The notes beneath the pieces were generated by a model. The model worked only from the letters and a program-made list of their open reading frames with translations. It had not been told where the DNA came from and made no database searches. Below are positions 23,371 through 27,697 of a stretch of 64,000 nucleotides of DNA, piece after piece. Numbering within the stretch: the first letter of the stretch is position 1; each line of letters starts with the position of its first letter. Made by a program: the position numbers and the translations under genes. The stretch comes from Sphingomonadales bacterium (GTDB taxonomy: Bacteria > Pseudomonadota > Alphaproteobacteria > Sphingomonadales > Sphingomonadaceae): positions 11,319-75,318 of the forward strand of contig JBBQDG010000008.1 of assembly GCA_038319435.1 (NCBI GenBank), read 5' to 3'.

Positions 23371-25974
23371 ATGAGTGACCGCTTCGACCCCGCGGCGGCC
23401 GATGCGCGCTGGCAGGCGCGCTGGGCCGAAGCGGGGAGCTTCGTCGCCGACGCGGCGAGCGCCAAGCCCAAGACCTTCGTGCTCGAGATGTTTCCCTATC
23501 CGTCGGGGCGCATCCACATGGGGCATGTCCGCAACTACACGATGGGCGATGTGCTGGCGCGGTTCCGGCGGATGCAGGGCTTCGAAGTGCTCCACCCGAT
23601 GGGCTGGGACGCGTTCGGCATGCCGGCCGAGAATGCAGCAATCGAGCGGGGGGTTCATCCCGGCGGCTGGACCCGCGCCAACATCGCAACGATGCGCGCG
23701 CAGCTGAAGCGATTGGGGTTCGCGCTCGACTGGAGCCGCGAGCTGGCGACATGCGAGCCCGACTATTACGGGCATGAACAGGCGCTGTTCCTCGACCTGC
23801 TCGACGCCGGCCTCGTCTATCGCAAGGAAAGCGAGGTCAATTGGGATCCGGTCGACGCGACCGTGCTGGCCAACGAGCAGGTCATCGACGGGCGTGGCTG
23901 GCGATCGGGGGCGCTAGTCGAGCGGCGCAAGCTGTCGCAATGGTTCTTGCGGATTACCGATTTCGCGGAAGAGTTGCTCGACGGGCTGGGGACGCTGGAC
24001 CTTTGGCCCGACAAGGTGCGGCTGATGCAGGAAAACTGGATCGGCAAAAGCCAGGGGATGAAGTTCGCGTTCGCGTTGGCCGCGCCGGAGGGCGGAATCG
24101 ACCAAGTCGACGTGTTCACAACGCGGCCCGACACGATCTTCGGGGCGAGCTTTGTTGCGGTTTCGGCGGGGCATCCGCTGGCGCTCGCGGTGGCCCGGCG
24201 GGACGGTGGAGCGCAGGCGTTCATCGACGAGTGCAAGACCGGCGGGACGACCGCAGCCGAGATAGAAACGGCGGAAAAGCGAGGTTTTGATACAGGGCTG
24301 GAAGTGGCCCATCCACTCGATCCGGGGCGTCGCTTGCCCGTGTGGATCGCCAATTTCGTGCTCATGGAATATGGTACCGGAGCATTGTTCGGGGTACCCG
24401 CGCATGACACGCGCGATTTCGAGTTTGCGCACAAATATGGCCTGGAAATTCGCCGGGTCGTCATTCCGCAGGGAGGCGATCCCGACGCCTCGGTCGACGA
24501 GCCCGAGACCGGCTACGGGGTCGCGGTCCATTCCGATTTTCTCGACGGGCTGTCGAGCGAGGAGGCCAGGGACGCGGTCATCCGGCGCGCCGAGGATGGC
24601 GGATGGGGCGAGGGAACGACTCAATATCGCCTGCGCGACTGGGGGGTGTCGCGGCAGCGTTACTGGGGGACACCAATCCCGGTGATCCATTGCGAGGCTT
24701 GCGGGCCGGTCGGCGTACCGCGCGACCAATTGCCGATCGTGCTGCCCGAAGACGTGACGTTCGACGTGCCGGGCAATCCCCTCGACCGGCATCCGACATG
24801 GCGTGACGTCGCTTGCCCGACGTGCGGTGGGGCGGGACGGCGGGAGACCGACACGCTCGACACGTTCGTCAATTCGTCATGGTATTTCATCCGCTTCGCC
24901 AGCCAGCCGGGCAACAAGCCATTCGACCGGGCGGAGGCCGAGCAATGGCTTCCGGTGGCGCAATATATCGGCGGGGTCGAGCATGCGATTTTGCATCTGC
25001 TCTATGCGCGCTTCTGGACGCGCGCGCTCGAACGGATCGGCAGGATCGGGATCACCGAGCCGTTCAAGGGGCTGTTCACGCAGGGGATGGTGACGCACGA
25101 AACGTACAAGTCGCTCGATGGGCGCTGGCTTGGGCCCGATGAGGTTGACGACGCGTCGGGTGGCGAGATGATCGAGCGCGCGACCGGAACCGCGGTGGCG
25201 CGCGGCCGCATCGAGAAAATGTCCAAGTCGAAGAAGAATGTCATCGACCCCGAGCCGATCGTCGACCGCTATGGCGCGGACGCGGTGCGCTGGTTCATGC
25301 TGTCGGACTCGCCCCCCGAGCGCGATCTCGAATGGTCCGAAGCGAGCATCGAGGGCGCCGCGAGATTCGTTCAGCGGGTGTGGCGGCTGGTACGCGAAGC
25401 ACGCGGAGCGAGCGGGAGCGACGTGACGCCACAAATGCAAGCGAGCGGCAGCGACGTGACGCCACGAACGCAAGCGAGCGGCAGCGACGTGACGCCAGCA
25501 AAAAACCCTTCGGTCGACAAGAAGCTGGCTCGCGCGACAGCCGCCATCGGCGCAGCGATCGACGGGCTGGCATTCAACAAGGCAATCGCGGCGGTGTACG
25601 AACTGGTCGGGTCGCTCGAGAAGGCCGCGCCCTCGGCAAGTCGCGACGAAGCGGTGCGGGTGCTGGTTCGGCTGATATCGCCGATGGCGCCACACCTCGC
25701 CGAAGAGTGCTGGGCGATGCTCGGGAACGACGGGATGGTCGCCGACGCGGCGTGGCCGAGCTTTGATCCAGCGCTTCTGGTCGACGACGAGGTGACGATC
25801 GCGATCCAGGTCAACGGCAAATTGCGCGACACGGTGACGGTCGCTCGCGGGATCGACAAGGACACGATCGAGGCAATCGCGCTCGGGCGCGACAAGATTG
25901 TTCGGCAACTCGATGGGGCAACTGCGCGCAAAGTGATTGTCGTTCCCGACCGGCTGGTGAATATCGTTGCATGA
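23371..25974 (+). CDS. leuS: leucine--tRNA ligase with an in-frame repeat insert
   Basis: HIGH-like [15 protein letters not shown], editing domain VFTTRPDT. Confidence 0.98.
25408..25506 (+). repeat. 33-bp x3 in-frame tandem repeat inside leuS
   Basis: GCGAGCGG(G/C)AGCGACGTGACGCCA-N9 x3, encoding [33 protein letters not shown]. Confidence 0.97.
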
Positions 25975-26069
25975 TGAAGAAGCGCGCGCCTCGCTGGTTT
26001 TTGCTGGCTGCAGTTTTTGGTGGCTGCCCTGTCGCTTCCGCTCGGCAGCGGTCGGGGAGCGCTTCGTGA
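25971..26069 (+). CDS. putative 32-aa uORF1 with signal-peptide/lipobox-like sequence
   Basis: [32 protein letters not shown]; its ATG overlaps the leuS TGA (ATGA). Confidence 0.4.
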
Positions 26070-26217
26070 TTCGCCGCCTGCCTCGCTGGTTTTTGTTGGC
26101 TGCAGTTTTTGTCGGCTGCCCTGTCGCTTCCGCTCGGCAGCGGTCGTGGAGCGCTTCATGATTCGCCGCCTGCCTCGCTGGTTTTTGTTGGCTGCCCTGT
26201 CGCTTCCGCTCGGCAGC
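25989..26217 (+). repeat. 92-bp tandem repeat (about 2.5 copies) of the lptE 5' region
   Basis: units start at 25989, 26081 and 26173 with CCTCGCTGGTTTTTG; the third copy lacks a 16-nt internal block. Confidence 0.95.
26066..26161 (+). CDS. putative 31-aa uORF2 with signal-peptide/lipobox-like sequence
   Basis: [33 protein letters not shown]; GTGA overlap with uORF1, and its stop overlaps the lptE ATG. Confidence 0.4.
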   Translation: MIRRLPRWFLLAAVFVGCPVASARQRSWSAS

Positions 26218-26676
26218 CTGACAGGCTGCGGGCTGCACCCGCTGTATGAAGGCGGCACTTCCGGAATCGCGGCAACGGGCCTGCGCTCGGTCGAGGTTGC
26301 ACCGATCCCACAACGCAGCGGCTGGCTGACCCGCAACGCGCTCGTCGACCGGCTTGGCGGGGAGCATCCGGCCGCTCGCTACCGGCTCGAAGTCGAGATT
26401 GACGACGCGCTGATCGGGTTCGGCATTCGTGGCGACGCCGCCGCGACGCGCGAGCGGCGAACCTTGCGCGCGCGATATCGGCTGGTCGAACGGGAAAGCG
26501 GCGCGGTGCTGCTCGATGCAACGGCGGGGTCGGACGCGGGGATCGACGTCGTCTCCTCCGAATATGCCACGGTCGCCGCCGAGCAGAACGCCGCCGAGCG
26601 CCTCAGTCAGCTCGTCGCTGATCAGATCGTCGCGCGGCTGGCGCGCTATATGTCGGCCGCGCCGCGGCGCCCGTGA
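26158..26676 (+). CDS. lptE: LPS assembly lipoprotein LptE
   Basis: [30 protein letters not shown] lipoprotein signal, YRLEV, SSEYAT..AE; between leuS and holA. Confidence 0.9.
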   Translation: MIRRLPRWFLLAALSLPLGSLTGCGLHPLYEGGTSGIAATGLRSVEVAPIPQRSGWLTRNALVDRLGGEHPAARYRLEVEIDDALIGFGIRGDAAATRERRTLRARYRLVERESGAVLLDATAGSDAGIDVVSSEYATVAAEQNAAERLSQLVADQIVARLARYMSAAPRRP

Positions 26677-26683
26677 GGGTGCG

Positions 26684-27697
26684 ATGAAGGCCAACAAGGC
26701 GACACTCGGGGCGAGCCTCGACCGGCCCGATCCGGCGGTGCGATTTTACCTGTTTTACGGGCCTGACGATGCGGGATCCCATGCGCTGGCGCATCGGCTG
26801 CTCAAGAGTCTGGGCGCCGAGCGGTTTGTGGTGACAGCAGGCGCTGTCAAGGGCGATCCGGCGCTGCTCGCCGACGAGGCCGGGGCGATGGGGCTGTTCG
26901 GGGACAAGCGCCTGCTGTGGATCGAGCCCGCGGGGGACGAGATTGCCGACGGGGTCGCAGGGTTGCTTGGCGCGCCGGCGGTCGAGAGTGTCGCAATCGC
27001 GATTGCCGGGGCGCTCAAGAAGAGTTCGGCGTTGCTCAAGCTGGCCGAGGGGGATCGCGCGGCGTGGGCGCATGCGTCCTATTTACCGGAGGGGCGCGAC
27101 GCAGACCGGATGGTGATTGATCTGGCCGGGTTGGAGGGATTGCGGGTGAGTGGCGGGCTGGCGTCGCGGATCGCGGCGGCGGCGGGGTCAAACCAGGCGA
27201 TCATTGCCGCGGAAATGGCGAAATATGCGCTTTATCTTGGATCGAGCACGGGGACGGAGCGTGAACTTGATCCTGAAACGGTCGACAAGCTTGGCGCGGA
27301 CAGCGGCGAGGGGGACTGGCAACGGATCGGGGACCTGGCGCTCGATGGACAGCTGGCCGAACTTGGCGACGCGTTGCAACGGTTGTCGCCGGGGGCATCG
27401 GAATGCGTGCCGATCGTGCGGTCGTTGCAGCGGCGCGTGCTCCAACTTGCACCGCTGCGCGCTCGGATCGAGCAGGGTGAGCGTGTCGACGGCGTCTTGA
27501 CGTCAATGGGCAAGGCCTTGTTCTGGAAGGACAAAGCAATTCTCCAGCGGCTGTTGTCGCAATGGAGTGGGGCGAGACTGGCGCAGCTTTCGGAGCGCGC
27601 CAGCGGGCTTGAGCGCCGGCTGATGTTCAGCTCGGTTCCGGACGAGGCGGCGCTGGGAGAAGAGCTTGTCGCGATCGCGCGGGCGGCCCGGCGGTAG
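26684..27697 (+). CDS. holA: DNA polymerase III delta subunit
   Basis: FYLFYGPD, LADEAGAMGLFGDKRL, ALFWKDK; leuS-lptE-holA synteny. Confidence 0.92.
   Translation: MKANKATLGASLDRPDPAVRFYLFYGPDDAGSHALAHRLLKSLGAERFVVTAGAVKGDPALLADEAGAMGLFGDKRLLWIEPAGDEIADGVAGLLGAPAVESVAIAIAGALKKSSALLKLAEGDRAAWAHASYLPEGRDADRMVIDLAGLEGLRVSGGLASRIAAAAGSNQAIIAAEMAKYALYLGSSTGTERELDPETVDKLGADSGEGDWQRIGDLALDGQLAELGDALQRLSPGASECVPIVRSLQRRVLQLAPLRARIEQGERVDGVLTSMGKALFWKDKAILQRLLSQWSGARLAQLSERASGLERRLMFSSVPDEAALGEELVAIARAARR

Follow-up and report, generated by a model that had tools for sequence, protein, structure and literature searches.

Background

Control by short upstream open reading frames (ORFs) is known in bacteria from the leader peptides of amino-acid attenuators and from the secretion monitors SecM, VemP and MifM, and in contingency loci it is the copy number of a tandem repeat, with units of 1-9 nt, that brings about phase variation. 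Translational coupling by termination-reinitiation, in turn, occurs where genes overlap by 4 nt (ATGA) or 1 nt (TGATG) (Huber et al. 2019, PMC6728339; 2023, PMC10666635; reviewed in PMC12548453). This coupling is strongest at a spacing of -4 or -1 and is nearly lost beyond ~20-30 nt, while long overlaps are worse still (PMC10666635; PMC12548453). It is known mainly from engineered reporters and gene-overlap statistics, and the locus that we analyze here, the junction between leuS and lptE in a Sphingomonadales bacterium, can be viewed as a natural experiment on the same process. The locus lies in a stretch of 64,000 nt (hereafter the window) of contig JBBQDG010000008.1, assembly GCA_038319435.1, and contains two small ORFs arranged in series between the two genes, such that every stop codon lies on the next start codon.

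Homologous arrays of one or two such ORFs were found in sister lineages, which make up a small group of soil sphingomonads, and in all of them the reading frames are arranged in the same way. We consider it probable, at roughly 60%, that the relay is retained because the translation of lptE depends on termination-reinitiation, in which case the encoded peptides would be by-products.

Results and discussion

Two small ORFs link leuS to lptE

The window is part of a 77-kb contig (C8) of a metagenome-assembled genome (MAG) of 54 contigs and 2.42 Mb that is 93% complete, and whose relatives carry the names Sphingomicrobium or Sphingomonas. All features of the locus are on the forward (+) strand. 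The leuS gene (leucine-tRNA ligase, 867 amino acids (aa), 23371..25974; TIGR00396, 999 bits) ends with a TGA at 25972-25974 that is overlapped by the ATG (25971) of small ORF 1 (32 aa, 25971..26069). The stop codon of the latter (26067-26069) is overlapped by the GTG at 26066 of small ORF 2 (31 aa, 26066..26161), whose own stop (26159-26161) lies on the ATG of lptE (172 aa, 26158..26676). The three junctions thus have 4-nt overlaps, i.e. ATGA at 25971-4, GTGA at 26066-9 and ATGA at 26158-61, and these ORF coordinates bear out the layout leuS > 32-aa ORF > 31-aa ORF > lptE that had been proposed in a preliminary description made from the DNA alone. The identity of LptE is supported by PF04390 (44.5 bits against a cut-off of 23) together with a lipoprotein signal peptide that carries the lipobox LTGC (Cys codon 26227-26229). 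The window and all sister arrays described below share the arrangement expected for termination-reinitiation, namely co-directional ORFs with a stop/start overlap of 4 or 1 nt.

Tandem Repeats Finder reported the array at 25988..26195 (period 92, 2.3 copies, 95% identity) with a score of 381, and since this is the highest-scoring tandem repeat in the whole 2.42-Mb genome, the array is not a matter of chance. The 92-nt period given in the preliminary description is therefore correct as the period of the repeat; the spacing from start to start, on the other hand, is 95 nt for unit 1, the head of which is 3 nt longer, and 92 nt for unit 2. Units 1 and 2, which differ at 5 positions and in the head, each contain an internal duplication of 16 nt (25997..26028 in unit 1, GTTTTTGCTGGCTGCA / GTTTTTGGTGGCTGCC; 26089..26120 in unit 2), which had been noted before and was recovered by Tandem Repeats Finder at 25997-26027 and 26089-26119. 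In unit 1 it shifts the frame of the peptide and creates the motif FGGC. Unit 3, the real start of lptE, is without it.

The overlapping junction is ancestral in Sphingomonadales

Among 162 distinct leuS-lptE junctions from Sphingomonadales, 143 have a -4 overlap between the leuS stop and the lptE start and nine have a -1 overlap, so that 152 of the 162 (~94%) overlap, a conservation of the kind expected when translation is coupled. In each overlapping junction the lptE start is in frame with the lipobox Cys, and in genomes of the same genus lptE starts directly on the leuS stop (gcATGA or gcGTGA). Because lptE starts on the leuS stop at most junctions (143/162), the extra units are best seen as duplicates of a coupled junction. 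From these data we infer that ancestral lptE would have been supplied with ribosomes by termination-reinitiation off the leuS stop.

The position of small ORF 1 is in line with such an ancestry. Comparison with the LptE start of the nearest relative without extra units (P0002, L044/L045) indicated that small ORF 1 retains the ancestral head, and as it also sits at the ancestral start, the array corresponds to 187 nucleotides (95 + 92) inserted within the 5' end of an ancestral, coupled lptE.

Sister lineages carry zero, one or two extra units

Proteins from the LptE cluster of the window (90%) and from the neighbouring clusters were traced to their contigs in independent assemblies, the array carriers among them all being MAGs or metagenome contigs of uncultured organisms. 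The preliminary description had named the comparison with sister strains as a check, and this comparison yielded arrays of one or two extra units in sisters and none in other close relatives. One extra unit of 80 nt is present in five ENA assemblies (L042, L043, L208, L209 and L213) and in two JGI metagenomes (L206 and L207). Two extra units are present in L039 and L212 (JGI; 83 + 77 nt) and in two NCBI MAGs (L040 and L041) that have the same junction as the GTDB genome G097. Zero extra units were found in L044 and L045 (ENA), which are sister to the window (87% nucleotide identity), and in L210 (Logan), L211 (JGI) and the GTDB genome G018. At the level of the genus, three copies of the signal-peptide core occur in 2 of 271 species genomes, i.e. 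that of the window and G097. The gene order leuS-lptE-holA is identical in all sister contigs. Judged by these homologous arrays in independent assemblies of sister lineages, the array is, as a class, not an assembly artefact.

In a tree of mature lptE and holA from which the repeat was excluded, the window is placed beside L044/L045, which have no extra unit, and six lineages form a polytomy; at least four changes in copy number are needed on this tree. The lineages that bear arrays differ by 11-18% in mature lptE, and the first duplication is, by this comparison, older than their split. The suggestion in the preliminary description that the array could be a neutral recent duplication is hence half right, as the word "recent" does not hold for a duplication of that age.

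Two other polymorphisms were observed in this clade. L211 and L206 are identical over 740 of 740 nt of lptE/holA and only 82% identical over the last 700 nt of leuS, and they have zero and one unit, respectively; the pattern would correspond either to a recombination breakpoint at the junction or to a chimeric metagenome contig in the case of L211. Within leuS, at 25407-25502, there is an in-frame 33-bp repeat that is copy-number polymorphic, with three copies in the window, two in L040 and L206, one in L042 and L044 and none in G018. These numbers track those of the extra lptE units (window 2, L040 2, L206 1, L042 1, L044 0, G018 0), and LeuS measures 867 aa in the window versus 845 aa in a one-copy lineage (L042/L208/L213).

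The reading frames are kept in register at every junction

The preliminary description had pointed to a coupling that is preserved at every junction of the window, and the relay turns out to be the feature that is conserved. The sister lineages have four distinct array haplotypes, each with a 4-nt (A/G)TGA overlap at every junction, all six distinct array junctions retain the overlap, and the extra units are ORFs of 27-32 codons. The start-to-start periods are 95, 92, 83, 77, 80 and 80 nt. All of these leave a remainder of 2 upon division by 3 (2 mod 3), as is arithmetically required if an ORF is to begin on one ATGA and stop on the next.

The most telling case is that of the window itself. 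Relative to the sister units, its units have gained the 16-nt duplication, which is private to the window, and have a tail that is 1 nt shorter. When the duplication was removed in silico, the small ORF ran on for 92 nt past the lptE ATG and out of frame; when the duplication was kept and the tail was given the length of the sister tails (+1 nt), the small ORF fused in frame to LptE as an N-terminal extension of 32 aa. Only the combination of the 16-nt duplication and the 1-nt shorter tail restores the arrangement of stop on start, and we therefore prefer to see the duplication as one of two frameshifts that offset each other.

Other insertions between leuS and lptE

Seven other Sphingomonadales genomes carry insertions of a different origin at this place. 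In six of these (L169, L174, L177, L182, L200 and L205) a palindromic element of ~85 nt (…GAGCCTGTCGAAGG…CCTTCGACAGGCTC…) is present in the first codons of lptE, just after the ATG that overlaps leuS, and in 6/6 genomes it is in frame to the lipobox and free of stop codons. The distances from the ATG to the lipobox are 128, 128, 128, 134, 140 and 146 nt, all 2 mod 3. In L180 (MAG Sphingomonadaceae D1_Bin_41) an insert of 201 nt forms an ORF of 50 codons. This ORF begins at the leuS ATGA, and a single nucleotide separates its stop from the new ATG of lptE (TGAtATG), which makes it an independent relay. The unrelated inserts point the same way as the arrays, i.e. to a constraint that would keep translation from the leuS stop unbroken, either in frame or via a relay ORF.

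A model for the origin and maintenance of the relay

In the model that we favour, the array is a real and heritable product of tandem duplication, and what was duplicated is the coupled junction, comprising a tail of ~20 nt, (A/G)TGA, the lptE head and the signal-peptide core. The founding unit would probably have come about when the 3'-terminal ~20 nt of leuS were duplicated in tandem along with the ATGA, the lptE head and the signal-peptide core. Such a duplication would move the working start of lptE 80-187 nt downstream, to where direct coupling to leuS is expected to be lost. With each extra ORF starting on the previous stop and stopping on the next start, ribosomes would be passed on from leuS to ORF1 (to ORF2) and finally to lptE, and purifying selection for the synthesis of LptE, the partner of LptD, would maintain the overlaps as well as a unit length of 2 mod 3. 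The signal-peptide cores are nearly invariant, and unequal crossing-over between them could then shift the copy number. The second unit of the window may have arisen in this way. The sequence CCTCGCTGGTTTTTG is present both in unit 1 and in lptE, and an unequal crossing-over between these two copies would account for the lptE-type head and the unit-1-type body of unit 2. In a by-eye alignment, downstream heads (MI[G/R]R[M/L]PRWF) and first-unit heads such as MMVRAPRWF match at 19 of 24 nt from the second ATG. Heads of the downstream type are also found at the ancestral position, in the single-copy genomes L210 and L211. The truncated signal-peptide products of the small ORFs are most likely by-products that would be degraded.

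A number of considerations weigh against this reading. The founding duplication had a 1-in-3 chance of being 2 mod 3 and later copies inherit the period; the second junction of the window is not independent evidence, because each copy of a 2-mod-3 unit with an ATGA regenerates the overlap automatically. The statistical weight is accordingly that of one compensated indel pair together with the absence of frame-breaking changes, and open frames are cheap because the genome is GC-rich. As for the origin of the units, the tail resembles the 3' end of leuS significantly only in the L042 copy (p = 0.0065) and not in the window or the other tails, and a model based on CGGC microhomology predicts 76 or 79 nt where the observed unit is 80 nt, so that we put forward the derivation of the tail from the 3' end of leuS only tentatively. 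Finally, most tails contain a Shine-Dalgarno (SD)-like GGAG or GGGGA from which lptE might initiate independently of the relay, a matter to which we return below.

Alternative explanations

The relay could have been selected for its effect on dosage. In such a reading the number of relay steps sets the amount of LptE per LeuS, each reinitiation passing on a fraction of the ribosomes, and the copy number (0, 1 or 2), which shifts by unequal crossing-over, is selected to match LptE to LptD; the array would be a copy-number-tunable relay between the abundant housekeeping gene leuS and lptE, a low-copy gene of the envelope. It would amount to a stepwise attenuator made of duplicated gene starts whose 2-mod-3 period is policed by selection, and the compensating 16-nt and 1-nt indels would be a sign of this. 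The 0/1/2 polymorphism among close lineages with its repeated changes on the tree (at least four) would suit this idea, as would the occurrence of alleles with one and with zero units on an identical lptE/holA sequence (L206 vs L211) and the context-dependence of reinitiation efficiencies in published work (PMC12548453). A neutral, unstable repeat predicts the polymorphism equally well, however, and additional initiation from the SD-like tails could soften any stepwise effect. We consider such tuning unlikely.

The second alternative holds that the small ORFs are irrelevant. The last tail would provide lptE with a ribosome-binding site of its own, and both the 2-mod-3 period and the overlaps would be coincidental, having been passed down from one founding duplication. 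This alternative can draw on the GGAG that precedes the ATG of lptE by 6 nt in the window, on the GGGGA or GAGGA in most sister tails, and on the automatic transmission of the period to copies. The compensating pair of a 16-nt and a 1-nt indel in the window would be left without a reason, as would the fact that the overlap was kept where the SD-like motif has been lost (L039 junction 2, -2.7 kcal/mol) or is weak (L206, -4.0 kcal/mol); moreover, the unrelated inserts in seven other genomes all keep an unbroken translation path from the leuS stop. With these observations taken together, independent initiation as the whole explanation appears quite improbable.

The third alternative, that the small ORFs encode working peptides, was raised in the preliminary description in the form of mini-lipoproteins or decoy substrates for the lipoprotein-processing enzymes Lgt and LspA, and small membrane peptides can be added to it. 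Both window peptides do have a basic N-terminus, a hydrophobic core that is strongly conserved, and a Cys in a relaxed lipobox (FGGC or FVGC). Yet FGGC and FVGC match only a relaxed PS00013-type pattern and fail the strict lipobox [LVI][ASTVI][GAS]C, in contrast to the LTGC of LptE itself. The Cys moreover stands in a lipobox-like context because the window-private duplication shifts the frame; the sister small ORFs are without this duplication, the lipobox-like Cys is absent from 5/6 of them, and only 1/6 matches even the relaxed pattern. Neither a strict lipobox nor a Cys conserved in homologues, as would be expected of a lipoprotein precursor, is thus seen. The peptide tails are not conserved either: they vary among the sisters (GSGGDFAR, AGGEDCAP, GSGAACAP, GGGGDMAS, GSGWDIAS), and the tails of the window peptides, PVASARQRS(G/W)SAS, are read in another frame than these. 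As to the hydrophobic core, its conservation is found at the level of nucleotides and is common to single-copy lptE. The mini-lipoprotein claim is consequently not supported, the comparison with the sister small ORFs likewise lends no support to decoy substrates, and a working peptide of any kind is in our view very improbable.

The least credible alternative is an assembly artefact in the MAG of the window (chained strain variants or a mis-resolved repeat), which the 54 contigs of this MAG might bring to mind and to which we give next to no credence, as units 1 and 2 differ enough (5 positions and the head) to be resolvable, at least nine independent assemblies (JGI, ENA, NCBI) have tail-to-head joints homologous to the ones seen here, and the array sits mid-way in its contig with synteny intact.

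Our preference for a relay that is retained because lptE depends on reinitiation follows from these comparisons: after the duplication of a coupled junction that looks essential, each stop still lies on the following start in four diverged lineages. They would constitute comparative evidence that lptE of Sphingomonadales depends on ribosomes delivered by leuS, and they offer ready-made alleles with zero, one and two steps for the determination of the reinitiation efficiency per step.

Other features of the locus

Upstream of both downstream starts in the window there are SD-like motifs, namely GGGGAG (26054..26059), 6 nt upstream of the GTG at 26066 and with a predicted anti-SD duplex of -7.1 kcal/mol, and GGAG (26148..26151), at the same distance from the lptE ATG (-5.6 kcal/mol). 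SD strength was considered as a conserved feature in its own right and rejected, since the values are spread between -2.7 and -7.1 kcal/mol and the motif is lost at some junctions. Neither a Sigma-70 promoter nor an intrinsic terminator was found in the array, its minimum free energy was no better than that of shuffled sequences (z = 0.38) and gave no indication of a stable RNA fold, and an Rfam search of the region yielded no relevant family.

A 29-nt signal-peptide core, TTTTGTTGGCTGCCCTGTCGCT(G/T)CCGCTC, is located at 26184-26212 and is repeated in units 1 and 2. It differs at 0-3 of its 29 positions among lineages that are 11-18% apart in mature lptE, and its synonymous sites are conserved as well, single-copy genomes included. 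This suggests a constraint at the nucleotide level, or frequent recombination, at the 5' end of lptE.

The repeat unit was found at one place in the genome only, the leuS-lptE locus, and a dispersed repeat or mobile element was rejected on this ground. A general proneness of the genome to tandem repeats was likewise rejected (67 arrays with a period of at least 12, of which 57 are in frame). A search of the genome for a source of the ~31-nt tail/head outside the locus returned chance-level matches only. A cluster of weak matches on contig C20 proved to be an unrelated 36-bp repeat (G000:C20:36631-36734, 2.9 copies, 94% identity, in frame) within what appears to be the Ala/Pro-rich linker of an E2-type acyltransferase, the identity of that gene being putative.

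Upstream of lptE, its reading frame continues without a stop across unit 2 and the greater part of unit 1, which gives a TTG-started ORF of 219 aa (26017-26676). Gene callers can therefore over-extend LptE through the units, as in the case of the JGI call P0127 (197 aa), which is of consequence for annotation. Exact-protein look-ups of the window LptE, both in its 172-aa and in its extended 219-aa form, returned no record, and sister proteins were used instead.

Downstream of lptE lies holA (DNA polymerase III delta, 337 aa, 26684..27697), the third gene of the conserved leuS-lptE-holA run, whose match to TIGR01128 (73.9 bits) is slightly below the cut-off of 80. LptD is present in the genome (C1:162338-163438, 224 bits), while LpxC was not found in the 93%-complete MAG. 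Sphingomonads that lack lipopolysaccharide (LPS) and bear sphingolipids retain the Lpt outer-membrane proteins LptD/LptE (bioRxiv 10.64898/2026.04.12.717747), and the combination seen here fits that picture.

Comparison with known systems

In the literature that we searched, ATGA-overlap coupling is well known and we found no description of a serial relay via mini-ORFs derived from a duplicated junction, with alleles of zero, one and two units and a compensated frameshift. The lipoprotein precursors processed by Lgt and LspA are resembled by the window small ORFs in so far as these copy the n- and h-regions of LptE and have a Cys after a small residue; they differ in the lack of a strict lipobox and in the absence of the motif from most homologous small ORFs (5/6) in sister lineages.

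With leader-peptide systems the array shares the presence of short ORFs just upstream of a gene, which here have a signal-peptide-like sequence. Unlike those systems, it has no alternative hairpins, no terminator and no known RNA family, and its peptide tails are not conserved. The secretion monitors depart from it further, as a long arrest peptide is missing and peptides of 27-32 aa are too short for the signal sequence to exit the ribosome before termination.

The similarity to contingency loci consists in a tandem repeat at the 5' end of a gene, the copy number of which varies between close strains. Its units are much longer, however (77-95 nt), and a change in copy number never turns lptE off, given a period of 2 mod 3 and a separate start and stop in every unit; at all observed copy numbers lptE is intact and overlapped.

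The closest relation is with overlap coupling itself. The ancestral leuS-lptE pair is a textbook example of it, and the arrays share with the described cases the co-directional ORFs, the -4 overlaps and, in most copies, an SD-like motif inside the upstream ORF. What sets the arrays apart is that the overlap is serial and runs via one or two mini-ORFs that stem from a tandem duplication of the junction, and that the upstream partners are not genes for partners in a complex but 27-32-codon remnants of the 5' end of lptE itself.

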